From: Alphaproteobacteria bacterium
GTDB taxonomy: Bacteria; Pseudomonadota; Alphaproteobacteria; Rickettsiales; SXRF01
Direction: 5' to 3'
Assembly: GCA_033763775.1 (NCBI GenBank)
Contig: JANRJW010000003.1
Coordinates: forward strand, 40,753 to 104,752
DNA length: 64,000 bases
How positions within the stretch are numbered: position 1 is the stretch's first letter; each line of letters starts with the position of its first letter. The position numbers and the translations under genes are program-made. Below are positions 9,321-53,067 of the stretch, piece by piece. Under the pieces are notes generated by a model. The model searched no databases and was not told the origin of the DNA. It saw only the letters and a list, made by a program, of their open reading frames with translations.

Positions 9321-10904
9321 CTACATGCCTGAATAGTTTGGGCCACCCGCACCTTCCGGCGTTTTCCAGACGATGTTCTGTGTTGGGTCCTTGATATCGC
9401 ATGTTTTGCAGTGCACGCAGTTCTGTGCATTAATCTGCAACCTCGGCTGCGGGTCGCGCACAATCTCATACACACCAGCAGGGCAATAGCGCTGCTCCGG
9501 CGCGTCATACAGCGCAAGATTATGCGCAACAGGCACCTGCGAGTCTTTCAGCGTCAGGTGGGCTGGCTGGTCTTCTTCATGGTTCGTACTGGATAGAAAC
9601 ACCGACGACAGCCGGTCAAATGTCAGCACACCATCGGGTTTGGGATAATCAATCGGCTTGCAATCCTTCGCTGGTTTCAATGCCAGATGGTCAGGATGAT
9701 GGCGCAGCGTCCATGGCGCTTTGCCTCGCAGCAGGAAAGTATCCAGCGCGGCATAGAGCAGCCCCGCCCACAGCCCATAGCGGAAAGCCGGGCGAATATT
9801 GCGCACCGCGCGTAGCTCGCTATGAATCCAGCTTTGCTTCACACGTTGCGGATAGCTTGCGAGGTCGCCCTCCGCTATCGCTTCTGCCGCCAGCATCGCG
9901 GATTTAATGGCCGTATGAGAGCCTTTGATTTTCGGCACATTCATAAAACCTGCCGAGCAGCCAATCATGGCGCCGCCAGGGAACACCAGCTCGGGAATGG
10001 ACTGAAAACCACCCTCATTGAGCGCACGCGCGCCATAGGCAATACGCCTGCCGCCCGCAAGCACACGACGGATGGCCGGGTGCGTTTTATAACGCTGAAA
10101 TTCCATGAACGGGTCAAGATGCGGGTTCTCATAATCAAGCCCAACCACCAGCCCAAGCGCCACCTGATGCCCCTGCAGATGATACATAAACGAACCACCA
10201 TAGGTTTTGCTATCCAGCGGCCAGCCAATGGTATGCACCACCCTGCCCGCTTCGTGATGCTGCGGCTCGATCTGCCATAATTCCTTGATGCCGATACCAT
10301 AGGTTTGCGGCTGGCAATGCTGCCTGAGATTGAACTCGCGCATGATGCGCTCGCTGATCGAGCCGCGGCAGCCCTCCGCCAGCAAGGTAAAGCGCGCACG
10401 TATGGGCATGGCTGGTTGATAGCTGGATTTTTTCTGCCCGTCTTTGCCAACACCAAATTCGCCCGTCACCACACCGGCAACACGGCCTTCTTCCATGAGT
10501 ATATCTGCCGCTGCAAAGCCCGAAAAAATCTGCACACCCAGCGCTTCCGCCTGCTGACCAAGCCAGCGACAGAGATTGCTCATGCTGACAATAAAATTAC
10601 CCTGATTATGCATCTGCGGCGGTGTCGGCAGACGAAACGCCCGGCGCGCCGTCAGCAGCATGAAGTGATCGTCTTTTGCCGGTGTCAGCAGCGAGGCGGC
10701 CTGCTGCTGCCAGCCCGGCAGTAGCTCGTCAAGCGCGCGAGGCTCAATCACCGCGCCGGAAAGAATATGCGCCCCCACTTCCGAACCTTTTTCCAGCACA
10801 CACACACTCAGCTGCGGTGCCAGCTGCCTGAGGCGGATGGCTGCCGCGAGTCCGGCAGGCCCAGCGCCTACAATCACGACATCATACTCCATGGTTTCGG
10901 TCAT
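9321..10904 (-). CDS. Electron-transfer flavoprotein:ubiquinone oxidoreductase (ETF-QO)
   Basis: FAD fold YDVVIVGAGPAGLAAA and a C-terminal 4Fe-4S motif NAQNCVHCKTCDIKDP. The length is typical at 527 aa. Confidence 0.9.
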   Translation of the reverse strand: MTETMEYDVVIVGAGPAGLAAAIRLRQLAPQLSVCVLEKGSEVGAHILSGAVIEPRALDELLPGWQQQAASLLTPAKDDHFMLLTARRAFRLPTPPQMHNQGNFIVSMSNLCRWLGQQAEALGVQIFSGFAAADILMEEGRVAGVVTGEFGVGKDGQKKSSYQPAMPIRARFTLLAEGCRGSISERIMREFNLRQHCQPQTYGIGIKELWQIEPQHHEAGRVVHTIGWPLDSKTYGGSFMYHLQGHQVALGLVVGLDYENPHLDPFMEFQRYKTHPAIRRVLAGGRRIAYGARALNEGGFQSIPELVFPGGAMIGCSAGFMNVPKIKGSHTAIKSAMLAAEAIAEGDLASYPQRVKQSWIHSELRAVRNIRPAFRYGLWAGLLYAALDTFLLRGKAPWTLRHHPDHLALKPAKDCKPIDYPKPDGVLTFDRLSSVFLSSTNHEEDQPAHLTLKDSQVPVAHNLALYDAPEQRYCPAGVYEIVRDPQPRLQINAQNCVHCKTCDIKDPTQNIVWKTPEGAGGPNYSGM

Positions 10905-18538: not shown

Positions 18539-20406
18539 TGATCAAGCTGGGTGATATTCTGACCGGACGCGGCTGGATCAGCCAAGACATGCTGGCAAAA
18601 GCACTCCGTCTGCAGGAAAAGCAATCAGGTAAACTGGGCGATACATTGGTGGCGCTGGGCGCTATAGGTCTTCGCCAGCTGCATCAGGCTTTGGCCGACC
18701 AACATGGGCTGCGCTACGTCAATCTGATGGATGAACCACCAGAATCGACGCTGCTGCATCAGATGCTCTCGCCCGAGCTGTGCCTATCGCGCAGATTAGT
18801 CCCATGGCGCCGCCATGAGGATGGCGGACTGATGATTGCCGTCACCGACCCGAGCGAAGAAACTAGAAAATGGTGCCGTAAACAATTTGGTAGCCTGACG
18901 CATCTGGTGATGACATCGCCAATGGATATTCGCCTGATTCTCCAGCGCGAGTGTGGCCTGCAGCTTGAGCAGGCGAGCATTCTTTCGCTATGGCAGCGTA
19001 ATCCTCTGCTTTCGTCTCGAAATATCTGGTGGCCGGCGCAGCAGCGATGGTTTGCCGCGCTGGGGCTTATGATCGCACTGTGTTTACTGATGGCGCCATG
19101 GCAAACACTCGTAGCGCTGATGGTCATTTTCAATCTGTTATTTTTTGCCACCTTGCTGTTTAAGAGCATTATTTTTCTTTCAGGACTGAGGCCGCAACCA
19201 ACGCTTAACTGGCAGCAGATACTCGCGGATCTGGATGAGGCCAGCCTCCCCGTCTATACCATTCTTGTACCGATGTACCGCGAGAAAGAAAGCCTGCCGG
19301 GAATGATGAAGTCGCTTGCCGCGCTTGATTATCCTGTCTCACGGCTGGATATCAAGCTGGTACTGGAGGCTGACGATGAAGAGACTTACCGCGCAGCCTG
19401 CGCTCTGAAACCGCCCTACCATATTGATATCATCCTCGTACCTGCCAGCCATCCGCGCACCAAGCCCAAAGCATGCAATTATGCGCTTCGTTTTGCGCGC
19501 GGCGAATACATCACCATTTACGATGCAGATGATCGGCCAGAACCAACGCAGCTGAAAAAGGCGGTGGCCATGTTTCGGCGCCTGCCGCCGGAAGTGGTCT
19601 GCCTGCAGGCCAGGCTGAACTACTATAATGCTGGCGATAATCTGCTGACACGTTTCTTCTGCCTCGAATATGCGATGCTGTTTGGCACACTGATGCCCGG
19701 GCTACAGCGCCTCGGCATTCCCATGCCGCTGGGTGGCACCAGTAATCATCTCGCGCTGGCGAAGCTGCGTGCGCTTGGTGAGTGGGATCCGTTTAATGTG
19801 ACCGAAGATGCAGATCTCGGCACACGCCTTTGCCTAGAAGGCGGCAAAACAGAAATGCTTGATTCCTTTACGCTTGAAGAAGCACCGATTCATGTCATGC
19901 CGTGGATACGTCAGCGTGGCCGTTGGATTAAAGGCTATATGCAGACCTGGCTGGTATATATGCGTGCACCCATCATGCTTTATCAATCACTGGGGCTGGC
20001 TGGCTTTGTCGGTTTTCAGTTCTTCATGGGGCTTTCCTGCCTGACATTTCTCGTGGCGCCGCTGGTCTGGCTGGTCAGCCTGCTATGGCTCACGGGATCG
20101 GCGCTGCATCATCTTCCTGAATGGCTGATAATGCTGGCGGTGGTCAATCTTGCATTTAATATCCTTGGCCACTGGATCATGGCCGCGGCCAGCCTGACAC
20201 ACCAGCATCACAGCAAACTTCGCCTGCTTTCAGGCGTGCTGTTTTTCCCGCTTTATCTGGCACTCCATTCCCTCGCCAGCTACCGCGCGCTATGGCAACT
20301 TTTTGTCGCGCCGCATCTATGGGATAAAACAGAGCATGGCCTGAGCCAGCCATCCGCGCCAAATATCTCAGAAAATGAGGCGCTTAAAGTGAGAGTTGCA
20401 GCGTAA
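18538..20406 (+). CDS. Membrane-embedded processive family-2 glycosyltransferase with N-terminal MshEN (T2SSE_N) c-di-GMP-binding domain
   Basis: A tandem 24-residue MshEN motif lies at 18544..18702. GT2 blocks are [26 protein letters not shown] (19519..19533) and QRGRW (19912..19926). There are 2 TM segments before and about 4 after the GT domain. ATG 18538 overlaps the upstream TGA and follows GGAGGA. Confidence 0.8.
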
Positions 20407-20470
20407 TAAATCCATTGACAAGCGCCCTGGCACTAAGCTAGACATGCGGCCTGCAAATAAAGGAATGGTT

Positions 20471-20596
20471 ATGAAAGTTCTCAGCTCGCTCAAATCTGCC
20501 AAAAAACGTGACAAAGACTGCCGCGTCGTTCGTCGCAAAGGCCGCGTTTATGTGATTAATAAGAAAAACCCACGCTTTAAAGCGCGTCAGGGCTAA
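20471..20596 (+). CDS. rpmJ: 50S ribosomal protein L36
   Basis: [41 protein letters not shown] (41 aa). ATG 20471 is preceded by AAAGGA. Confidence 0.9.
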
Positions 20597-21194: not shown

Positions 21195-21271
21195 GGACCC
21201 GTAGCTCAGTTGGATAGAGCATTTGACTACGAATCAAAAGGTCGGGCGTTCGAGTCGCTCCGGGTCCGCCA
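21195..21271 (+). tRNA. tRNA-Arg (anticodon ACG)
   Basis: Cloverleaf read by hand. The acceptor stem is GGACCCG/CGGGTCC and the D arm is GCTCAGTTGGATAGAGC. The anticodon stem-loop is TTTGA-CTACGAA-TCAAA, the T arm is GGGCGTTCGAGTCGCTC, and CCA is encoded. Confidence 0.9.
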
Positions 21272-21272
21272 C

Positions 21273-22562
21273 CTACCCTTTCTTTTCCCTCAGTTTCTGC
21301 CAGTAATCGAGACGCTTGATAATCTCGCGCTCAAAACCGCGCTCATTAGGCTTATAAAATTGCTGGCGCGCCATGGTTTCTGGAAAATAATTCTGTCCGG
21401 AAAAGCCGTCTTCTTCATCGTGGTCATAAGCATAATCCGCGCCGTAACCAAGCGCCTTCATCATCGTTGTTGGTGCGTTCAGAATATGTGCTGGCGGCAT
21501 CAACGATCCGTGGCTGCGAGCGCTGCGCGCGGCAGCTTTTGCCGCAACATAAACCGCGTTGGATTTTGGGGCGGTTGCCAGATATACCACAGCCTGTGCG
21601 AGTGCCAGCTCTCCTTCCGGCGAGCCAAGAAACTCATACGCCTCTCTGGCGGCATTGGCCTGCATGAGCGCCTGCGGGTCGGCCATGCCAATATCCTCAG
21701 CCGCGAAGCGCACCAATCTGCGTGCAATATAAAGTGGGTTTTCGCCGCCTTCCAGCATCCGTGAAAACCAGTAAAGCGCCGCATCAACGTCGGATCCACG
21801 CAGTGATTTGTGCAGCGCGCTGATGAGGTTGTAATGCCCATCCTGCTTTTTATCATAGACCGGTGCACGCTTTTGCACATAAGCAGCCAGTTGCGCAGCA
21901 TCCATCGCGTTGCCCTGATACGCCGCCACCAGCTCGCAAAAATTCAAAAGTGCGCGGCCATCGCCATCCGCCATTGCTATCAGCTGGAGCCGTGCTGGCT
22001 GCGTCAGTGGCAACGATTTGCCTAGCTTTGCTTCGGCGCGAATCATCAATTGTTCGAGCGCTGGTTGCTCAAGGCGGCTCATCACCACCACCTGCATGCG
22101 TGAAAGCAGTGCGCTGTTAATTTCAAACGAGGGGTTTTCGGTGGTGGCGCCAATGAGCACGATGGTGCCATCCTCAACCACTGGCAGAAATACATCCTGC
22201 TAGGCGCGGTTGAAACGATGAATTTCATCCACAAACACCACCGTTTTTCTGCCATCCTTGGCACGTGTGCGAGCGCGTGCAAAAATCTCCTTCAGCTCTG
22301 CCGTGCCAGAGGCAACGGCCGATACCACATCCATCTCATAGCCACTCTGCTCTGCGATAATGCGGGCAAGCGTGGTTTTGCCGCAGCCGGGCGGCCCCCA
22401 TAGCACCAGCGAGACAGGCCTGCGACTTGCAAGCATCTGCCTGAGCATGTGCGATTGGCCAAGCAGCGCCTCCTGCCCCACCAGCTGGTCAAGCGAGGTT
22501 GGCCGCAGCTGCTCTGCCAGCGGCATGTCGCTCGTCGTGTTTTGTTCAAAAAGTGTTTTCAT
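21273..22562 (-). pseudogene. rarA: Replication-associated recombination protein A (RarA/MgsA) interrupted by one in-frame TAG
   Basis: Two same-frame ORFs (22200..22562 and 21273..22181). The Walker A motif is GPPGCGKTT. The junction reads [39 protein letters not shown], where homologues have Q at the stop position. Confidence 0.85.
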
Positions 22563-23139: not shown

Positions 23140-25470
23140 TTACGCCCTGCTACTGCTGAACTGCAGCGCGCCAAGCAGCGACGACTGCAGGCTGCGCGCC
23201 TGAGCAATCACCGCAACCGCCGCATTCACCCGCACCGCAGACTGCGCATAGTTGATCGATTCCTCAGCAATATCAGTATCCACCAGCACGCTGCGCGCCT
23301 GGGTGAGGCCCTCGATGGTGCTGCTTAAATTACTGCGTGCAAAATCAAGCCGCTGCTGCTGCGCCCCCAATGTGCTGATCGTGCCAAGCACCGCATTGCG
23401 CGCAATCGCAATCGCGCTTTGCGCCGCTGCAGCAGCGGACTGGCTGGCCACGCTTGGCAAAGTGCCGTTAAACAGTGCGCTGCTGCGCGCATCGTCAATC
23501 ACTACATTCAATACATCATCACTGCTGATACCAAGCTGAAATCTTGCGCCATTATCGCTGGCGCCAAGCCGCAGTGCTGAGCGAAACGCCGATGCAAAAG
23601 CTGCCGCTGCTTCAGCATCCGAAAAATTCTTCTCAACGGATCCATTTCTTAGAATCAGCTGTTTATTGCTATCCACGACACTGCTGAACACCACCGTTTC
23701 ATACGCGCCGATACGCCCGCCCAGCCCTGTTTCCGCGCTGAACTCTTCGCCATTAATCACCAGCTTGATACGCCCATCCGCGCTCGTGGGCGCGGTGACA
23801 GTGAGACTATCAATACGCACATCGCTGAAATCTTTCAGCTGCAGCCGCGCTGAAGCGTCCAGAAAACTGCCCGCCGCCACCACATTACTCACCGGACGGC
23901 TGTTATAAAATGTCAGGGTAGAAAATGCGGCATTCATACGGCTTGCAAACGTATCAGCGCTGCTTTGATTAGTCACAGCCAGCCCGCCGGAAGCAAGCTG
24001 CACATCCAGATACCCGCCCTCATTCGAGCGCAGCCGCACAGTGGTGTTGGTTGCTGGTGTGGTGTCGCTGATGGTGGCGCTGTACACACTGCTGCCCACT
24101 GTCAGATTGAGGGTGATATTATCGGCTGAGTTATAGGTCGCGGAAAAGCCCTGAATCGTGCCGATAAAATCGCCGTTATTGATGGCTGAAACATTCACGC
24201 CGGTTGTCGTGCCATTATTCAGCGTTGTCGTTGAGAGGGTGCCATTAGCAATTGTTTCAGCAATATCCAGCGCGGCGCCGCTGAGATCGGTGGGGTTGCC
24301 CGGGGTTTGACTGCGAATCGTGAGCGTATTGCCGCTGATAGAAAACTCCAGCTGCCGCAGCCCATAATTATCGCTGCCCTGATACTGGCTGAGTTTGGCG
24401 ACAATATTCTGGAGCGTCTCTTCCGTCGTTGCGCCAATTTGAATTTCCGTGGCAGTCGAGGCGCTATTGCTGAAGCTGAAATTAATCAGGCCGCCATTGC
24501 CATTGTCGATGCGCAGCTGCTCACCGGCCGTGACGGCACCATTTAGCGTTAGCGTTGCGCTGGCCGCGACCTGCGACTGCGCGGTGACCAGCGAATCACC
24601 CACAATGCCCGCCGCGCGCGTGCTGGAAAACCCCAGCCCATTATCAGCGCCGCCGGAAAGCGTAAACACGTTGGTCACGCTGGTGGCACCGCCCGAGGTA
24701 GTGAATGTGGTGGTGGAGCCGGCTTGGTTAATCACAAACTGGTTGCCCAAGGTGCCGCCGGAACGTGCGGTGAGCGTCAGCACGTTGGTGCCGGTGCGTT
24801 CAGCCCGAACGCCAGAAAGTGCGGTGTTTGTAGAATTATTGATGGCAAGCACCAGATTATCGAGCGTTGTTTGCGTGCTGCCGCCCACGGCAAAATCCGT
24901 ATTCGCCGCCAGCGAAACACCATTCAGCACCACCGTCTGACCTGCGGTCGGGTTCGCACTGAAAGTGAGCGCAGCGCTTGCTTTGGTGGCTGGGGTTGAT
25001 TGTGTCAGTGCTTTAGCTGCGCCGGAGAGTGCGCCGGAAAGCAGCCGAATGGCATTAAAGGAAGTGTTGCTCGCAATGCGATCAATCTCAGAAAGATACT
25101 GGCTGAATTGCTGCTGCAGAAATGCACGGTCTGTGCTGGTGAGTGATGCGCTGTTGGCCTGCACAGCGGTGGCATTCATCTGGTCGAGTATCTCGCGAAT
25201 CTGGCCAAGTCCGCTATCGGCGACCTGAAGCAGGCTGGTGCCCTGCGCGACATTGATGGAGGCTTGCTTCAGCCCGGAAATCTGCGACTGCATACGCGCC
25301 GCGATGGAAAACGACGCCACATCATCGCTGGCGCGCGCCAGACGATTACCACTGGAAAGCCGCAGCGTCGAGTCAGCCAGCTCGTCGCTGGCGCGGTTTA
25401 GAGAAAATAAAGCCGGAGTAAAAAACGCTGAGGAACTCAGCGACGAAGAAATCGTCGTCATAGACATCAT
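23140..25470 (-). CDS. Flagellin, unusually large (776 aa)
   Basis: The N-terminal flagellin domain contains LRLSSGNRLARASDDVASFSIAARMQSQISGLKQASINVAQGTSLLQVADSGL. The C-terminal domain contains LGAQQQRLDFARSNLSSTIEGLTQARSVLVDTDIAEESINYAQSAV. Between them is a Thr/Ser/Gly/Asn-rich insert of about 540 aa. Confidence 0.85.
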   Translation of the reverse strand: MMSMTTISSSLSSSAFFTPALFSLNRASDELADSTLRLSSGNRLARASDDVASFSIAARMQSQISGLKQASINVAQGTSLLQVADSGLGQIREILDQMNATAVQANSASLTSTDRAFLQQQFSQYLSEIDRIASNTSFNAIRLLSGALSGAAKALTQSTPATKASAALTFSANPTAGQTVVLNGVSLAANTDFAVGGSTQTTLDNLVLAINNSTNTALSGVRAERTGTNVLTLTARSGGTLGNQFVINQAGSTTTFTTSGGATSVTNVFTLSGGADNGLGFSSTRAAGIVGDSLVTAQSQVAASATLTLNGAVTAGEQLRIDNGNGGLINFSFSNSASTATEIQIGATTEETLQNIVAKLSQYQGSDNYGLRQLEFSISGNTLTIRSQTPGNPTDLSGAALDIAETIANGTLSTTTLNNGTTTGVNVSAINNGDFIGTIQGFSATYNSADNITLNLTVGSSVYSATISDTTPATNTTVRLRSNEGGYLDVQLASGGLAVTNQSSADTFASRMNAAFSTLTFYNSRPVSNVVAAGSFLDASARLQLKDFSDVRIDSLTVTAPTSADGRIKLVINGEEFSAETGLGGRIGAYETVVFSSVVDSNKQLILRNGSVEKNFSDAEAAAAFASAFRSALRLGASDNGARFQLGISSDDVLNVVIDDARSSALFNGTLPSVASQSAAAAAQSAIAIARNAVLGTISTLGAQQQRLDFARSNLSSTIEGLTQARSVLVDTDIAEESINYAQSAVRVNAAVAVIAQARSLQSSLLGALQFSSSRA

Positions 25471-46845: not shown

Positions 46846-47013
46846 ATGAAAACACAAACCTTGATCTCGCTAGTCTGCCTTTTAGGGCTATCCGCCTGTA
46901 TCGCAACTCCGCGCATCGAAATTCCTGACCAGATGAGCTTTAACTACGTTGTTCCCAACCAGCAACCCATGAGCTATACGGATATTATGTGCTGCGTTGA
47001 TTGTCACGTATAG
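46846..47013 (+). CDS. Small Cys-rich lipoprotein (55 aa), not in ORF track
   Basis: ATG 46846 follows AGGAG. The product is MKTQTLISLVCLLGLSAC (lipobox LSAC) ... SYTDIMCCVDCHV, ending at TAG 47011..47013. Confidence 0.45.
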   Translation: MKTQTLISLVCLLGLSACIATPRIEIPDQMSFNYVVPNQQPMSYTDIMCCVDCHV

Positions 47014-47064: not shown

Positions 47065-47093
47065 TTGACGCGCTGAGCGGCCGTTGTTACCAT
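47065..47093 (+). promoter_or_regulatory. Candidate promoter for the PEPC-like gene
   Basis: TTGACG (47065..47070), a 17-nt spacer, then TACCAT (47088..47093). If real, it excludes the TTG start at 47084. Confidence 0.3.
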
Positions 47094-47122: not shown

Positions 47123-50100
47123 ATGAATAAAATCAGCCCGTCCAGTATCTCCGCCAGCAAAAGCCACCACCCCACCTTCACGCTGACCCCCGCAAGGCTC
47201 ATGGCTGGCCTGAAGGAAGAGCTGGACAGCAGCACCCTCAGCGAAGCGCAGCAACTCTATGCCGATGCCCTGCTGCTCAATGTAAGCAACCATGCAGCAA
47301 GCGCACTCGCCGAGGACGCTTCCATCACCAGCAGCACCAAAGCGCGCAGCGCCCCTCCCGCCCATAGCCGCACACGCGCCGGCCAATATGAGCCGGTGCT
47401 CTATGAGCTGATTAAAGATGGCAAAACAGAGGAGATCGGCCGTTTAGTCGAAAAGCAGTCCATCACTATCACCAGCCACCCGAATTTCAGCCGCTCACGC
47501 GAGCTGGCAAAACTCTCTCGCGAGCTGACCGATGCACTGAGCGGCTTATCACGCATAGAGCAGCATGAGATCCAGCAGACGGGCACCCTGCCGCAAGGCG
47601 AAATCCGAGATAAAGTTGCCGATATACTGGCCAAACTACCCGCCGAGCTGAAACCCCGAAAAAAACGCACACGACGAGATGAGGTGGAAGAAACCACACT
47701 CGACTTCATCCCCACCGCGATGAAAGCCGCCAGCGAACAACTCGCCATCATCAAAAAACGTGCGCCGCAAAAGCTGGAATTTAAGAGCACAAACCAGCTG
47801 GATGCCGTAGCCGAACTGCTGCCGGAATATAATAGCTGGATCACTGATGGCGACGGCAAGCGTACCTGCCATGTCTATGACACGGAATACATGATCCCCG
47901 CCATCAAGCGCAAAACCTATGAAGAATACCTAAAGCAGATGGAAAAACTGCCCGACCAGCTGGGTGAATGGAATGTAAAAGCAGCGAGAGAAAAACTCTC
48001 CGGCGATATCGCAAAACTAACTGAGATTGAAGAACTCACAATACGGCGCATGGAGGCATTTAACCACCTCCATGAAAAATATGAGGCGCAGAAAGGTGAA
48101 GGCCGCGATACACCGGCCGTCAGCGCTTATCAACAGGCAAGACGTGATACACAGAAAATCTGCGAAGAATATATCCAGAAAGTCACGGGCAGTGATGCCG
48201 CCAAACAACTGCTGCAAGGCGACGCTGTCTCCGAAATACTTACTCCACTGGCCGCTTCGCTGGGGAGCATCTACAAAGATGCTCTCACACTCGATGCTGA
48301 CCGACAATCTGTGGCAGAAGATTTATATGTTAAACTCAAACATTTCGGCAACTTTGCCGTGCGCCTCCAGCGCCGCGAAAATGCCGGCCAGTATCATGAA
48401 ATTTTCAAACATCTTATCGAGAAACAAAACAGCGTTCGCGAGGCACTGGTTGAAAGGCTGGCTGGAACCTATGGCGTAGATGAAAATGATATCATCAGCA
48501 GGATGGAAGATAAAAAATTCCTCAGCGATGCCATTAATACTTTTGCCCACGATATCATTATCGAGGACAAGGATTCGAAAGTCAGGAAAGCCATTAAAGA
48601 AGAGTATCGAAGGCTGGCTGCCAAACTGGAAAAAAGCGCCAAGAAAAACAATGGCGGTGACCAGAACCCCGCCATCAGTGCGCTGGAAAAAGACGAGCTG
48701 CTCGCGCTTGATGGCCTTGGGCATTTTGTGATGGCGCAGTATTATCCTGAAGCATTTAAAGGCGGCTTTGTGATTGCTGAGTTTGGCCAGCCCGGGCTTG
48801 ATGTGCTTAAGCGTGGTGATGAGGCGGAAATTGCACAGGAAGTTGGCCGTGTCGCAATGGATGATATGAAATTGCAGGTCGCGCTCGCCCACGCGATGAA
48901 AACCAACAAGTTTGACAGAAGCAGAGTCAAAATCATCCCCCTGCACGAAGACCCGGCCACGCTACTGCATATCCCGGGCGCACAAGGCGTGCTGCGTGGC
49001 AATGGCAGTGAGGATTCACTCATCGGCAATTACCTGCTCGATTACATGGGAGTGACCAAGGAAAATGCTGAAAGCAAGGCAAAACTTACGATTGATAAAG
49101 ATGGTAAACTCAGAAAACTAACCGCCTATGATGAGATGAAGCGCCTTGGCGTGAGCGATGGTGAGCTTCAAAAGCGCGGCCTGAACGCAGAATCGCTTAA
49201 AAAGACGCTGGTGCTGGAAGGCCCGGAGGATATGGAGGCGTGCAGCGATAACAGCAAACGCGCCGGCATTATCGGCGCTGAGCTTGCCGAGTGGTCGGTG
49301 CGTGAAAAAGCCATTGAAGGCGCAAAGCACCCGGTCAGAATCGGCGAGCAGCTTTTTATCATCCGCAAACCTAAATATCTTGGTCAGGGCGGCGCTGTGG
49401 CGCGCGCGACCGATGTGCCCATCACCTCATCGCAGGCCACCTGGCAGGGCGAACATGCCGCCTCGCAAACCGGCAAATCGCTGGCACACACCGCGCATCA
49501 CAACCTGCTCGGCAGGCTGTATCTTACCACCACCGCATCGCGCGGGGAGACTGAGCCGCCGGAGCTATTTGCCAAAGCCGCATCCATGCCCCATTTTGCG
49601 AACCGTCTTGGCCTGCCAACTTATGGGATGGAAGAAAGCGAAATTGAGCTGATGAAAGAAGCCATCAATGAGCGCATCGCTTCCACGCGAGACGATAAAC
49701 GCTATGATAAATTTCTGGATAAATATGCCGAGCCAGCGCCGAATTACAGCGCGCGGCCGGATTCCAAAAAAGCCGGCAGCAAAGGCTTTGCTGAAAAACG
49801 CGCGATTGGTGTGGCGGCGGAAGAAGCGGGTATTTTTGCCAACGTGATGGCGCTGGCGGATATTTTTTCAGTGGTGGATAAAGGTAGCCGCAAGGGTGAA
49901 ATTTCTCATGAAAGCATAGAAGATATTAAGCGCTGGCGAAACAATGACCCCGCGCTTCAGCAACGCCTTTCCGCCGCCGCGCTGATTGCTAATTTTGTTA
50001 ATTTGGAGAAGAAATGGGCGCGCGGAGGCATCACGCTGGAAACTAAAAATGGTCAGGAGTTACTGACAAAAAATGAGCAGACCATCAGTCTGGATACCCT

Positions 50101-50452
50101 TTTAGACGCCTACAAAAACAAGCAGCCGAATATTCAGGGTTTTGATGAGGCGGATATGGTGATGGCGTATCTACACAGCCAGTTCAGAAAGCTGGAAAAA
50201 GGCTTGCTCGCACTGAATAAAAAACAAACACTCATCGAGCTATTCGACGAGCCGCACCGCGAAAGCATTATCGCCACCAAAGTGCTGTATGACAAGGTTT
50301 TGGAACGGCTGCAAACCACCAAGGGCGAAAAAAATACCGATCGCGAGCTGCTCGAAGGGGTGTATTACCTGATATTTGAACAGGGCGGCGCGCAATTTCC
50401 GCTACCCCATCTGCTGGAAAAACCAAACGGCAAAAGCGCCAGTGCTCTCTGA
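47123..50452 (+). CDS. Highly divergent phosphoenolpyruvate carboxylase-like protein
   Basis: Nine collinear blocks resemble PEPC signatures: TSHPNF, SWITDGDGKRT, KHFGNFAVRLQRRENAG, FVIAEFGQPGLDVL, IPLHED, ACSDNSKRAG, LGQGGAVARAT, TWQGE and SARPDSKKAGSKGFAEKRAIGV. I chose ATG 47123 because the track start at 47084 is TTG. Confidence 0.6.
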   Translation: MNKISPSSISASKSHHPTFTLTPARLMAGLKEELDSSTLSEAQQLYADALLLNVSNHAASALAEDASITSSTKARSAPPAHSRTRAGQYEPVLYELIKDGKTEEIGRLVEKQSITITSHPNFSRSRELAKLSRELTDALSGLSRIEQHEIQQTGTLPQGEIRDKVADILAKLPAELKPRKKRTRRDEVEETTLDFIPTAMKAASEQLAIIKKRAPQKLEFKSTNQLDAVAELLPEYNSWITDGDGKRTCHVYDTEYMIPAIKRKTYEEYLKQMEKLPDQLGEWNVKAAREKLSGDIAKLTEIEELTIRRMEAFNHLHEKYEAQKGEGRDTPAVSAYQQARRDTQKICEEYIQKVTGSDAAKQLLQGDAVSEILTPLAASLGSIYKDALTLDADRQSVAEDLYVKLKHFGNFAVRLQRRENAGQYHEIFKHLIEKQNSVREALVERLAGTYGVDENDIISRMEDKKFLSDAINTFAHDIIIEDKDSKVRKAIKEEYRRLAAKLEKSAKKNNGGDQNPAISALEKDELLALDGLGHFVMAQYYPEAFKGGFVIAEFGQPGLDVLKRGDEAEIAQEVGRVAMDDMKLQVALAHAMKTNKFDRSRVKIIPLHEDPATLLHIPGAQGVLRGNGSEDSLIGNYLLDYMGVTKENAESKAKLTIDKDGKLRKLTAYDEMKRLGVSDGELQKRGLNAESLKKTLVLEGPEDMEACSDNSKRAGIIGAELAEWSVREKAIEGAKHPVRIGEQLFIIRKPKYLGQGGAVARATDVPITSSQATWQGEHAASQTGKSLAHTAHHNLLGRLYLTTTASRGETEPPELFAKAASMPHFANRLGLPTYGMEESEIELMKEAINERIASTRDDKRYDKFLDKYAEPAPNYSARPDSKKAGSKGFAEKRAIGVAAEEAGIFANVMALADIFSVVDKGSRKGEISHESIEDIKRWRNNDPALQQRLSAAALIANFVNLEKKWARGGITLETKNGQELLTKNEQTISLDTLLDAYKNKQPNIQGFDEADMVMAYLHSQFRKLEKGLLALNKKQTLIELFDEPHRESIIATKVLYDKVLERLQTTKGEKNTDRELLEGVYYLIFEQGGAQFPLPHLLEKPNGKSASAL

Positions 50453-51107
50453 TCGCCTGCTTTACCGCGATGCGCTGATGCTGGTAATCGACAAACCAGC
50501 AGGTATTCCCGTTCACAAAGGCAGCGGGGGCGGGGAAAATCTGGAGCAGTATTTTGACGAGCTGCGCTTTGGCCTGCCGCGTTTGCCTGCGCTTGCCCAC
50601 CGGCTGGATCGCGATACCAGCGGCTGCCTCGTGCTGGGGCGCAACCGCCATGGCCTCGCCACGCTGGGCAAACTCTTCGAGCAGAACCACATCGAAAAAA
50701 CCTACTGGGCGGTGGTCAAAGGTACACCGAAGGAATCACAAGGCATCATCGATGCGCCGCTGGCGAAAGTGTCCGCACGCAAAGATCGCTGGCAGATGAA
50801 GGTGGATGCTGGAGGCCTTCCCAGCCTCACCGCCTACCGCGTGATGGGCACAAGCGGCGCCCATAGCTGGATCGAGTTCAAACCCAAAACCGGCCGCACC
50901 CATCAGCTGCGTGTGCATAGCGCCGCGCTCGGCTGCCCGATTCTTGGCGATAAAATCTATGGCGAGGCGGACGCAAGCGGCCTGCAGCTGCATGCCCGCG
51001 CTATCACCATCCCTCTTTATGCGAAAAAAGAGCCGATTACGGTGACTGCGCCGGTGCCGCCACATATGCAGGCGTTGCTTGCGGCCTGCGGCTATTACAT
51101 AGCTTGA
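50376..51107 (+). CDS. RluA-family pseudouridine synthase
   Basis: LLYRDALMLVIDKPAGIPVH, HRLDRDTSGCLVL (catalytic Asp) and GRTHQLRVH. The start is uncertain: TTG 50376 overlaps the upstream gene by 77 nt, and GTG 50442 is an alternative. Confidence 0.8.
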   Translation: MNRAARNFRYPICWKNQTAKAPVLSDRLLYRDALMLVIDKPAGIPVHKGSGGGENLEQYFDELRFGLPRLPALAHRLDRDTSGCLVLGRNRHGLATLGKLFEQNHIEKTYWAVVKGTPKESQGIIDAPLAKVSARKDRWQMKVDAGGLPSLTAYRVMGTSGAHSWIEFKPKTGRTHQLRVHSAALGCPILGDKIYGEADASGLQLHARAITIPLYAKKEPITVTAPVPPHMQALLAACGYYIA

Positions 51108-51353: not shown

Positions 51354-51445
51354 GGAGGGGTGGCCGAGTGGTCTAAGGCGCACGCCTGGAAAGTGTGTGT
51401 ACGGGTAACACTGTACCGTGAGTTCGAATCTCATCCCCTCCGCCA
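51354..51445 (+). tRNA. tRNA-Ser (anticodon GGA)
   Basis: The acceptor stem is GGAGGGG/CCCCTCC and the D arm is GCCGAGTGGTCTAAGGC. The anticodon loop is CTGGAAA. There is a long variable arm and the T arm GTGAGTTCGAATCTCAT. CCA is encoded. Confidence 0.9.
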
Positions 51446-51533: not shown

Positions 51534-52148
51534 TTATGTAAGTTTTACAAACTTAGCTAAAAATTTTGGTCTCGCATAAAATGCTCTTGAGGTCGACCCA
51601 TGACCCGCACCTTTAGTGCGCGGCTGAATGTAGACACCCATACGCCCTGTAAGTGCCTTGAAGCCGCGCCTGGGATCTTTCAGGCACTGTTGGACTGTCT
51701 CGTAATCGCTTTTTACAGCTGCATACAGATCACCATTAAGATCTAAAGTGACAACTGAATGCACATAGCTTGGATCGCTATAATGTTTCCCAACTTCTCT
51801 CACCACACAAACTGCTTTTCTAAGCTTTGCCAAAAGATGGCTTTCTTCAAACGGCGTGCGCTCAACATGATAGGGATCGATCATGGTGATTGCCATGGTT
51901 TCCTTAAATTGTAGTTTGCCATTTTTAAGGCGCTTAAGCGGTATGGACTTTAATTCCCATGAACCAAAATTTGGGCTTTGCGCAGAATTAATAGGAATGC
52001 CAAGAAACCGCTCGCAAACATGCCCCGCCCAGCCTTTGTTCACTTTGCCATTCGTAGATAACACGGTAACTTCAAATTGCTTGGCAAGAGAATGCAGATT
52101 TACTCCCTCAAGTTCTTTTAGCTTGAGTAAAGCATCAGCTCTTTCCAT
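51534..52148 (-). CDS. MutH/Sau3AI-family endonuclease (single domain, 204 aa)
   Basis: KGWAGHVCERFLGIPINSAQSPNFGSWELKSIPL parallels MutH KGWIGVLLEIWLG...DFAALGVELKTIP. YIQPRTKGAG...RAFYARPKFLAKFV parallels MutH YLQIRPKAAN...RGFYLKKNF. Confidence 0.7.
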   Translation of the reverse strand: MERADALLKLKELEGVNLHSLAKQFEVTVLSTNGKVNKGWAGHVCERFLGIPINSAQSPNFGSWELKSIPLKRLKNGKLQFKETMAITMIDPYHVERTPFEESHLLAKLRKAVCVVREVGKHYSDPSYVHSVVTLDLNGDLYAAVKSDYETVQQCLKDPRRGFKALTGRMGVYIQPRTKGAGHGSTSRAFYARPKFLAKFVKLT

Positions 52149-52149
52149 G

Positions 52150-53067
52150 CTAAACTGCCGTTAGCAGGTTGGGCTGATCTCTAAAATAAACCTCATTAAG
52201 CCTCTTGATTGACAGGTCTATAAACGCATCCTCTAGTTCAACACCGCAAAACTTTCTATTTAGCCGCAGCGCTGCGACACCAGTTGTGCTGCTACCGGCA
52301 AATGGATCAAATACGAAATCACCCGGCTTAGTTGCCGCTTCTATGCAGCGCTGCAGTAGCGCTAAAGGCTTTTGAGTAGGGTGCTTTCCGTGCTCTTTTT
52401 CAACAGATCCTGGAGCAGTAAATCTCCAAACAGATTTCATCTGTTTGTCGCCATTATATTTTCGCATTAAATCATAGTTAAAATAATGCTTTGATTTATC
52501 ATTTTTAGCTGCCCAAAGAACAGTTTCAGTAGAGTGAGTAAAATAACGGCAAGCTAAATTTGGTGGAGGATTAGGCTTCTCCCACGCAATATCATTCAAT
52601 AATTTAAACCCAATTTGCTGCAAAGCAAAACCGATAGAATAAATAATATGCATTGTGCCTGACACCCAAATCGTTCCATTTGGTTTTAATAGTTTCTGAC
52701 AACGCGAGAGCCACTCTATGTTGAATGCATGATTAACATCTGCGCCCTGAGACTTATCCCACTTCCCCTTATCCACCTTCACCATTTTCCCGGCCTGACA
52801 GGTGATTCCGCCATTTGATAAGAAATAAGGAGGATCAGCGAAGATCATATCAAAACAACCCTGTGGGTGTTTGGCGATGATCATATCCATAATTTCAAGG
52901 CAGTTTGCCTGATAAAGATATGCCCCAGCCTCGCGGTTAGATAGCACCAGCTTCTTGGTTTCAACCAAACCGCCAGACTCTTGGAAACCTTGCGTTCTAT
53001 CGCCATCAAGCAGGTGCGATAGATCATAATCAAGGTTGTTGCTATAGATCATATTTTTCATTCTCAC
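52150..53067 (-). CDS. Beta-class N6-adenine (or N4-cytosine) DNA methyltransferase, DpnA-like
   Basis: Motif IV DMIFADPPYFLSNGG precedes motif I FDPFAGSSTTGVAA. Other blocks are NPPPNLACRYFTHSTE and GKHPTQKP. The stop lies 1 nt from the nuclease ATG. Confidence 0.9.
   Translation of the reverse strand: MRMKNMIYSNNLDYDLSHLLDGDRTQGFQESGGLVETKKLVLSNREAGAYLYQANCLEIMDMIIAKHPQGCFDMIFADPPYFLSNGGITCQAGKMVKVDKGKWDKSQGADVNHAFNIEWLSRCQKLLKPNGTIWVSGTMHIIYSIGFALQQIGFKLLNDIAWEKPNPPPNLACRYFTHSTETVLWAAKNDKSKHYFNYDLMRKYNGDKQMKSVWRFTAPGSVEKEHGKHPTQKPLALLQRCIEAATKPGDFVFDPFAGSSTTGVAALRLNRKFCGVELEDAFIDLSIKRLNEVYFRDQPNLLTAV

Follow-up and report, generated by a model that had tools for sequence, protein, structure and literature searches.

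Phosphoenolpyruvate carboxylases (PEPCs) are regarded as a family of two classes, the bacterial/plant type and the archaeal type, with one reaction and stereotyped catalytic loops. The archaeal type (PepcA, PF14010; C. perfringens structure 3ODM) is a divergent yet active class which was long missed by standard models. Here we describe a PEPC-like gene situated at 47123..50452 on the + strand of a 64,000-nucleotide stretch of contig JANRJW010000003.1 (assembly GCA_033763775.1, Rickettsiales), hereafter called the window. An earlier note on this DNA had taken the gene product for a full-length but highly divergent PEPC-like protein and 'not a routine ppc', and both statements stood. The protein is a cytoplasmic enzyme of the PEPC superfamily; its function is most likely that of an active PEPC lacking allosteric regulation, a reading which we favour with modest confidence from its sequence and its predicted structure.

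The PEPC fold is a beta-barrel with about 40 helices round it. In PEPC the Mg2+ ion is held by a Glu and an Asp residue, CO2 is bound in a hydrophobic pocket, and the proton of carboxyphosphate is taken up by a conserved His located in a flexible loop (PMC10176493). The role of the catalytic His and the roles of loop I and loop II have also been described in PMC3894211, where the C-terminal peptide is termed catalytic. In the Flaveria enzyme the HCO3- site includes K600; two arginines, R450 and R767, are essential (PMC6363079). The malate/aspartate site consists of Flaveria R641, K829, R888 and N964, corresponding to R587, K773, R832 and N881 of the E. coli enzyme (PMC3586729). The PEPC of Plasmodium falciparum (1148 aa; PMC3894211) is, like the protein described here, long by virtue of surface insertions round a conserved barrel. 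It retains loop I in the canonical GRGGxxGRGG form as well as the catalytic peptide at the C-terminus, whereas the protein's family has neither, and it is readily recognised as a PEPC, unlike this family.

The family is not recognisable by standard annotation. With the single protein no match to PF00311 or PF14010 was obtained in Pfam even at E<=10, no PEPC model of NCBIfam was matched and nothing was found among the PDB sequences. A profile of 12 family sequences found no chain in the PDB, and no precomputed Pfam domain was present on any core family member. A collection of 5.8 billion sequences contained 12 family proteins, all annotated as 'hypothetical', and when 1.84 billion representatives were scanned in full with HMMER, 24 family matches were obtained. 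The family is present in 6 of 185,579 species genomes, all of them metagenome-assembled genomes (MAGs) of Rickettsiales or Alphaproteobacteria. Taken alone, the searches with the single sequence and with the 12-sequence profile would have led to the wrong conclusion that the protein is not related to PEPC.

An AlphaFold2 model of the 1109-aa protein (predicted template-modelling score 0.80, mean predicted local distance difference test (pLDDT) 73.7) was compared with the PDB using Foldseek. At E<=0.001 there were 56 matches, and the 50 matches listed were all PEPCs (Arabidopsis, Flaveria, maize), with a best E of 7e-15 at a probability of 1.0, template-modelling scores of 0.50-0.57 and ~1170 aligned columns. 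In HH comparisons the core family was connected to PEPC by a group of intermediate sequences, the bridging clade: core and bridging clade aligned with E=2e-38 over 909 columns, bridging clade and 20 diverse canonical PEPCs with E=4.4e-33 over 675 columns, and both alignments overlap across the whole catalytic core. The diverse PEPCs were drawn from the search with the bridging-clade profile, which retrieves them from the 5.8-billion-protein database, instead of from a search seeded with E. coli Ppc, which gave only relatives at >=81% identity. Four bridging proteins (P0145, P0147, P0149 and P0150), which were the remotest matches in the scan of representatives, score above the Pfam PEPcase gathering threshold (50-91 bits vs a cut-off of 22.4). 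When core and bridging sequences were combined, the extended profile matched PDB PEPC chains in HMMER with E=2.4e-11, and the alignment pairs each motif block with its PEPC counterpart. With E. coli Ppc as a single sequence, the HH alignment of the family covered the TAHPT block only (E=0.077).

The earlier note had proposed a search for PEPcase profile or structural similarity; such similarity was found with the structure and the extended profile, and none with profile searches of the single sequence. Because Foldseek, the HH chain via the bridging clade and the extended HMMER profile agree, we consider PEPC homology established, and the assignment of the protein as a true, extremely diverged PEPC homologue with a predicted PEPC fold is solid. 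If the motif resemblance were coincidental and the protein unrelated to PEPC, the failure of the single protein in Pfam, NCBIfam and PDB and of the 12-sequence profile would be accounted for, as would the marginal result of the direct HH comparison with PEPC. This reading was refuted by the Foldseek, extended-profile and HH-chain results: the matches listed by Foldseek are without exception PEPCs, at E about 1e-14 and over the full length, the links of the HH chain (2e-38 and 4e-33) overlap as full-length alignments, and the residue map is colinear across ten blocks. We give a chance resemblance practically no credence.

In a distance tree based on 781 shared columns the sequences form a ladder, which leads from the canonical PEPCs via P0149/P0150, P0145-P0147 and a mid group (P0137-P0139) to the core family. 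Within a small, very divergent clade of long PEPC-like proteins (1100-1280 aa) from alphaproteobacterial MAGs the protein has the outermost position, on a separate long branch and not among the ordinary alphaproteobacterial Ppc proteins, as the view of the earlier note implied. Mean identity is 15% between core and PEPC, 17% between bridge and PEPC and 19% between bridge and core. The bridging clade (P0145, P0146, P0147/P0151, P0149, P0150) comprises full-length homologues of similar length (1097-1208 aa), whose genes have a chromosomal neighbourhood comparable to that of the core genes and likewise alphaproteobacterial. Both groups share the signatures W..GD.D[GS]K, R[QE]NA, PL[HL]E and RAIG, and like the core the bridging proteins are without H579 and R581 (Q/T and T/V instead) and without K773. 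They differ from the core in an N-terminal third that is still recognisable as Pfam PEPcase and in keeping TPHPTE and GDRDSK, which are nearer to the canonical forms. P0151 carries the IMG name 'phosphoenolpyruvate carboxylase', whereas no source names any core member.

Compared with the bacterial/plant PEPCs (PF00311; E. coli Ppc 1FIY/1JQN, maize C4 PEPC 1JQO, Arabidopsis PPC1, Flaveria PEPC), the protein shares the fold and the order of the catalytic blocks and is identical in the His, the Mg2+ ligands, the three Arg residues, the HCO3- Lys, the Arg587 equivalent, the pocket and TxQGE. It is only ~15% identical overall, lacks QNTG as well as counterparts of K773, R832 and N881, and has 226 extra residues. 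From the archaeal-type PepcA it is set apart by size, ~540 aa being about half its length, and by the missing PF14010 match.

The open reading frame (ORF) list contains a single long ORF at 47084/47123..50452 (+). The coding sequence at 47123..50452 begins with ATG and comprises 1109 codons plus stop. This ATG is the likely start, preferred over the less likely TTG at 47084 because of a promoter candidate at 47065..47093 (+) and because the homologous proteins start there too. The candidate promoter is sigma70-like (TTGACG-17-TACCAT with extended TG), by consensus match only. With 1109 vs 883 residues the protein is 226 aa longer than E. coli Ppc, close to the ~220 aa estimated before. All nine motif blocks that the earlier note had recognised are present and colinear in the ORF. 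Six of its coordinate ranges were exact, whereas ITSHPNF starts at 47468 and not at 47471, and LGQGGAVARAT at 49379 and not at 49382, each one codon off; the E. coli Ppc strings that it quoted proved right when compared with the real sequence from NC_000913.

Residues were assigned from the HH chain, and the same map was obtained independently when 40 sequences were aligned with MAFFT L-INS-i (all blocks are on the + strand; E. coli residues in brackets). TSHPNF (47471..47488) corresponds to TAHPTE and contains the invariant T117, H119 and P120 (T136, H138, P139), His119 being the equivalent of the catalytic His138. It is followed by PRKKRTRRDEVEETTLDFIP (47654..47713), the counterpart of the R-P-x-P-x-DE...E-x-x-x-x-x-VP segment with P197 (P218), and by SWITDGDGKRT (47834..47866), the counterpart of SWMGGDRDGNP, in which W239, D242 and D244 (W248, D252, D254) are kept, and R253 and N256 are changed to G243 and K246. 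The RQE-containing block KHFGNFAVRLQRRENAG lies at 48338-48388, coordinates as the earlier note gave them; LQRRENA (48365..48385) corresponds to LDIRQES and carries R418 (R396; Flaveria R450), the Arg of the PEP phosphate. FVIAEFGQPGLDVL (48767..48808) aligns with the barrel strand YVISMAxxxSDVL, and D581 (D482) is kept as well. In IPLHED (48935..48952; VPLFET) P606, L607 and E609 (P503, L504, E506) are conserved, the Glu being a Mg2+ ligand. The second ligand, D709, is part of MEACSDNSKRAG (49232..49267), which matches MIGYSDSAKDAG of PEPC, includes ACSDNSKRAG (49238-49267) and keeps M704, S708, D709 and K712 (M538, S542, D543, K546), the Lys belonging to the HCO3- site. Positions W248, L504 and M538 are what we take to be the hydrophobic CO2 pocket of the E. 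coli-Mn-DCDP structure.

The altered loop I, YLGQGGAVARAT (49376..49411), takes the place of FHGRGGxxGRGG. It keeps G754, G756, G757 and R761 (G580, G582, G583, R587), and has L753, Q755 and A762 at the positions of H579, R581 and G588. TWQGE (49439..49453; TEQGE) has the invariant T773, Q775, G776 and E777 (T611, Q613, G614, E615). Loop II is represented by SARPDSKKAGSKGFAEKRAIGV (49748..49813) with R878/P879 (R699/P700) and R893/A894/I895 (R713/A714/I715); R703 is listed with the kept positions and is K882 here. The spacing of the catalytic loops is preserved (D-x2-K; G-x6-R; R-x14/15-R), the Arg-to-Arg distance in loop II being 15 residues vs 14 in E. coli.

An alignment of 20 sequences of the divergent clade (mean identity 28%) contains 30 invariant columns, one of which is the start Met. 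Nineteen of the 29 informative columns hold the same residue as an invariant column of canonical PEPC, where ~3 would be expected by chance, and four further columns sit on invariant PEPC positions; almost all residues invariant throughout the clade are PEPC active-site residues. His119 is invariant in 20/20 sequences, as are across the clade the Mg2+/Mn2+ ligands E609 and D709 and the PEP-phosphate arginines R418, R878 and R893. Arg761, Trp239, Leu607 and Met704 are also invariant; at the position of K712 the core family always has Lys, the bridging clade Lys or Arg. Both alignments bear out that the His of TAHPTE, the Arg of RQE and the two metal ligands are retained, as the earlier note had suspected.

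Other canonical positions are occupied by a different, family-invariant residue: R253->G, N256->K, Q397->E, H579->L, R581->Q, G588->A, E612->W, P716->G and K773->F (F958). G589 is without an aligned counterpart, as Thr763 comes directly after Ala762, and the HH alignment offers no counterpart in the protein for E. coli R832, N881, G883 and K620. Invariant basic residues have appeared at K246, R247, R417, R713, K749 and K751 (protein numbering). The loss of H579, R581 and K773 is common to the whole divergent clade. Three of the four residues of the Asp/malate inhibitor site are lost, K773 being F958 and R832 and N881 unaligned or non-conserved. Here too the earlier description was accurate: LGQGG stands in place of HGRGG, RAT in place of the second RGG (the Arg being kept), the GDRDGNP block is altered and the C-terminal NTG is absent. 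In the joint alignment Glu1086 of the motif FExG, which is invariant in the core and nearly so in the clade, is aligned to N881; speculatively, it could supply the carboxylate given by the terminal Gly in canonical PEPC.

The additional length is unevenly distributed. Relative to E. coli Ppc the intervals differ by -19 (N-terminus to His), +10 (His to Trp), +31 (Trp to RQE Arg), +81 (RQE Arg to PLxE Glu), +63 (Glu to SDS Asp), +8 (SDS Asp to loop-I Arg), +5 (loop-I Arg to SRP Arg), +1 (SRP Arg to RAI Arg) and +46 residues (RAI Arg to C-terminus), in total 226. Selection was analysed by comparison with the near-identical genome L002. The PEPC-like gene product is 88% identical to its L002 counterpart with an overall ratio of nonsynonymous to synonymous rates (dN/dS) of 0.22, vs 98-99% identity and dN/dS of 0.03-0.055 for the neighbours ExbB, ExbD and RluA. 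In the segments with the catalytic blocks dN/dS is 0 to 0.1. The excess divergence is limited to aa 301-500, 601-694 and 1045-1090 (32-82% identity, indels), intervals which coincide with most of the extra length (+31, +81, +63, +46). The segment aa 301-500 (48023..48622, +) is fast-evolving and indel-rich (32-82% identity to L002, a 30-aa indel), with lineage-specific insertions on both sides of the RQE strand and beyond it; inside it lies a conserved island at ~aa 398-424 bearing the RQE block (48365-48385). A second fast-evolving insertion, aa 625-694 (48995..49204, +), lies between PLxE and the SDS strand and makes this interval ~63 aa longer than in E. coli. Behind the variable C-terminal segment aa 1045-1090 (50255..50392, +) come a conserved FExG...P.P.LLE motif and then a tail that is not conserved and has no QNTG. 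We infer that the 226 additional residues form insertions at the surface, between elements of the core. The selection pattern is that of a functioning enzyme whose surface insertions are plastic, and not one of decay. Along the gene, dS vs L002 (2033..5299) is very uneven (0.03 to 1.2 in 50-codon windows), and the L002 gene has a 30-aa deletion, which points to recombination or to a mosaic exchange within the inserts.

All residues with which canonical PEPC binds PEP and Mg2+ and performs carboxylation are kept in the protein. In the function proposed, Glu609 and Asp709 would hold Mg2+, Arg418, Arg878 and Arg893 would bind the PEP phosphate, Lys712 and Arg761 would serve the bicarbonate site and loop I, and His119 would be the base decomposing carboxyphosphate, with Trp239, Leu607 and Met704 as a water-excluding CO2 pocket. 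The conversion of PEP and HCO3- to oxaloacetate and Pi would be retained, and the protein would act as the anaplerotic enzyme of an organism capable of making its own amino acids. Carboxylation is likely to be retained because the residues which serve the carboxylation half-reaction alone, the His base and the CO2 pocket, are invariant. Loop I would be stiffer, two Gly residues being replaced and Arg581 being changed to Gln. With the Asp/malate feedback site and QNTG lost, the enzyme would probably be constitutive, without an allosteric T/R switch; it is probably non-allosteric because three of four inhibitor-site residues, the C-terminal Gly responsible for positioning the Arg of loop I, and two hinge glycines are lost. 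Several points weigh against this assignment. The direct HH comparison of the core with the 20-sequence PEPC profile is marginal (E=0.0034), and therefore homology rests on the bridging clade and the predicted fold. His579, Arg581, Gly588 and Gly589 are invariant in the 20 aligned canonical PEPCs and are replaced in the protein, the C-terminal QNTG 'catalytic peptide' is absent and the C-termini of the family are variable after the conserved ...LLE motif. At the catalytic loops (706-716, 756-763 and 876-902) pLDDT of the model is <50. A literature search found no document on the role of Arg581, and a comparison of conserved neighbours revealed no consistent operon partner or conserved metabolic neighbourhood across the loci.

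The changes in loop I and the missing C-terminal peptide could alternatively mean that a PEPC-fold enzyme binds PEP (or a related enol-phosphate/2-oxo-acid) and Mg2+ and has an altered second substrate or outcome, for instance bicarbonate-independent PEP hydrolysis, phosphotransfer or capture of the enolate by a different electrophile. When loop I or His138 of PEPC is mutated, carboxylation is lost and HCO3--dependent PEP hydrolysis is kept, which we counted in favour of changed chemistry. The replacement of canonical invariants by family invariants (H579->L, R581->Q, N256->K, Q397->E, E612->W, P716->G), the new invariant basic residues and the position of one member between ppk1 and ppx, genes of phosphate-polymer metabolism, point in the same direction, as does the absence of the C-terminal peptide (PMC3894211). 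Against this, the residues of the carboxylation step (His119, the W239/L607/M704 pocket, K712 and R761) are invariant, the spacing of the catalytic loops is preserved and the ppk/ppx neighbourhood occurs at one locus only. To our knowledge, moreover, there is no PEPC homologue with a different reaction. We consider changed chemistry unlikely, if still a serious contender. A wider form of the idea, in which core, mid group and bridging clade constitute a third structural class of the PEPC fold with a reaction other than bicarbonate-dependent PEP carboxylation, would attribute the new reaction to the remodelled loop I (G-Q-G-G-x3-R-A-T), to the basic residues at their new positions and to a conserved internal Glu motif that replaces QNTG; this we hold to be doubtful.

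A PEPC-derived scaffold or regulatory protein without catalysis would be compatible with the extreme divergence (~15% identity to PEPC), the loss of regulatory and C-terminal elements and an evolution faster than that of the neighbours (88% vs 98-99% aa identity to L002). The faster overall rate, however, is explained by the insert regions. Such a pseudo-enzyme is improbable, since the columns invariant across the clade are metal ligands, substrate arginines and the catalytic His, which a scaffold has no reason to keep, and since very strong purifying selection acts on the motifs (dN/dS ~0-0.1 at the catalytic segments). The alternative posed in the earlier note, either new chemistry or a pseudo-enzyme, is accordingly not well supported in view of the invariant active-site residues and the strong purifying selection at the motifs; both are less likely than a very divergent, deregulated PEPC.

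Upstream of the gene lies a divergent exbB-exbD-exbD-tonB-rmlBADC block, and downstream an RluA-type pseudouridine synthase whose ORF (50376..51107, +) overlaps the 3' end including the stop codon; in L014, the start called for this gene overlaps the stop by ~10 nt. The same flanking arrangement is found in L002 and L014, and the RluA-type gene is probably co-transcribed with the PEPC-like gene. The overlap is specific to this lineage and is absent in the distant family members, where yaaA is found upstream in three loci and ilvD/edd in one. At locus L012 (7738..15391) the gene for P0012 lies between ppk1 and ppx on the same strand, with a virB8-virB11/virD4 type IV secretion cluster nearby. 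The bridging gene P0147 is flanked by Fe-ADH and acetyl-CoA synthetase (acs) genes, and P0147 and P0009 are both near an alphaproteobacterial slt-rlpA-dacC-tmk cluster. With Rfam no riboswitch or leader was detected in the 565-bp upstream region, and a canonical PEPC hidden Markov model found no canonical PEPC in ~270 kb of contig neighbourhoods (not whole genomes). The window contains genes for RNase E, ETF-QO, ATP synthase F0, GlmS, metXW, tyrA, chorismate mutase, lipA and aminotransferases and encodes Met, Tyr and Phe biosynthesis; it is an ordinary chromosomal region of a flagellated, respiring, biosynthetically competent alphaproteobacterium. With these biosynthetic pathways, aminotransferases, ETF-QO and ATP synthase, the organism requires that oxaloacetate be supplied by an anaplerotic route.

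Some further features of the window were observed. In the 565-bp upstream intergenic region an unlisted 55-aa ORF, MKTQTLISLVCLLGLSAC... (46846..47013, +), combines a lipobox with an AGGAG ribosome-binding site; the syntenic contig L014 has a called gene of 55 aa at the corresponding position (9725-9892), and the ORF is probably a small conserved lipoprotein. Downstream, a tRNA-Ser(GGA) gene (51354-51445) is located next to restriction-modification genes, namely a MutH/Sau3AI-like endonuclease (51534-52148, -) and an N4/N6 DNA methyltransferase (52150-53067, -). The segment 51354..53067 has a GC content of 0.48 vs 0.55, is absent from L014 and is, judging by these features, probably a small restriction-modification island inserted at the tRNA. 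The rarA/mgsA gene (21273..22562, -) is split in two ORFs, a Walker-A N-terminal part (22200-22562) and the C-terminal domains (21273-22181), which indicates a frameshift and thus either a pseudogene or an assembly error; it is directly adjoined by tRNA-Arg(ACG) at 21195-21271. An unusually long flagellin of 776 aa (23140..25470, -) has conserved helical domains at both termini; its large central part gave no match. The small ORF 20396..20596 (+) presumably encodes ribosomal protein L36 (rpmJ), which it resembles by sequence-pattern recognition.

The clade keeps the PEP/Mg/CO2 site and has lost His579, Arg581, the loop-I glycines, the C-terminal peptide and the feedback-inhibitor site. It is thus a natural experiment on which of the canonical 'invariant' residues serve catalysis and which allosteric switching. 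Should the divergent clade be a third class with another reaction, it would be the first case of neofunctionalisation in a superfamily for which only one reaction has been known so far. A naturally feedback-insensitive PEPC, if the favoured reading is true, could be of interest to metabolic engineers. For the organisms themselves, proteins annotated as 'hypothetical' gain a testable function, and metabolic reconstructions of these MAGs would otherwise score PEPC as lacking.

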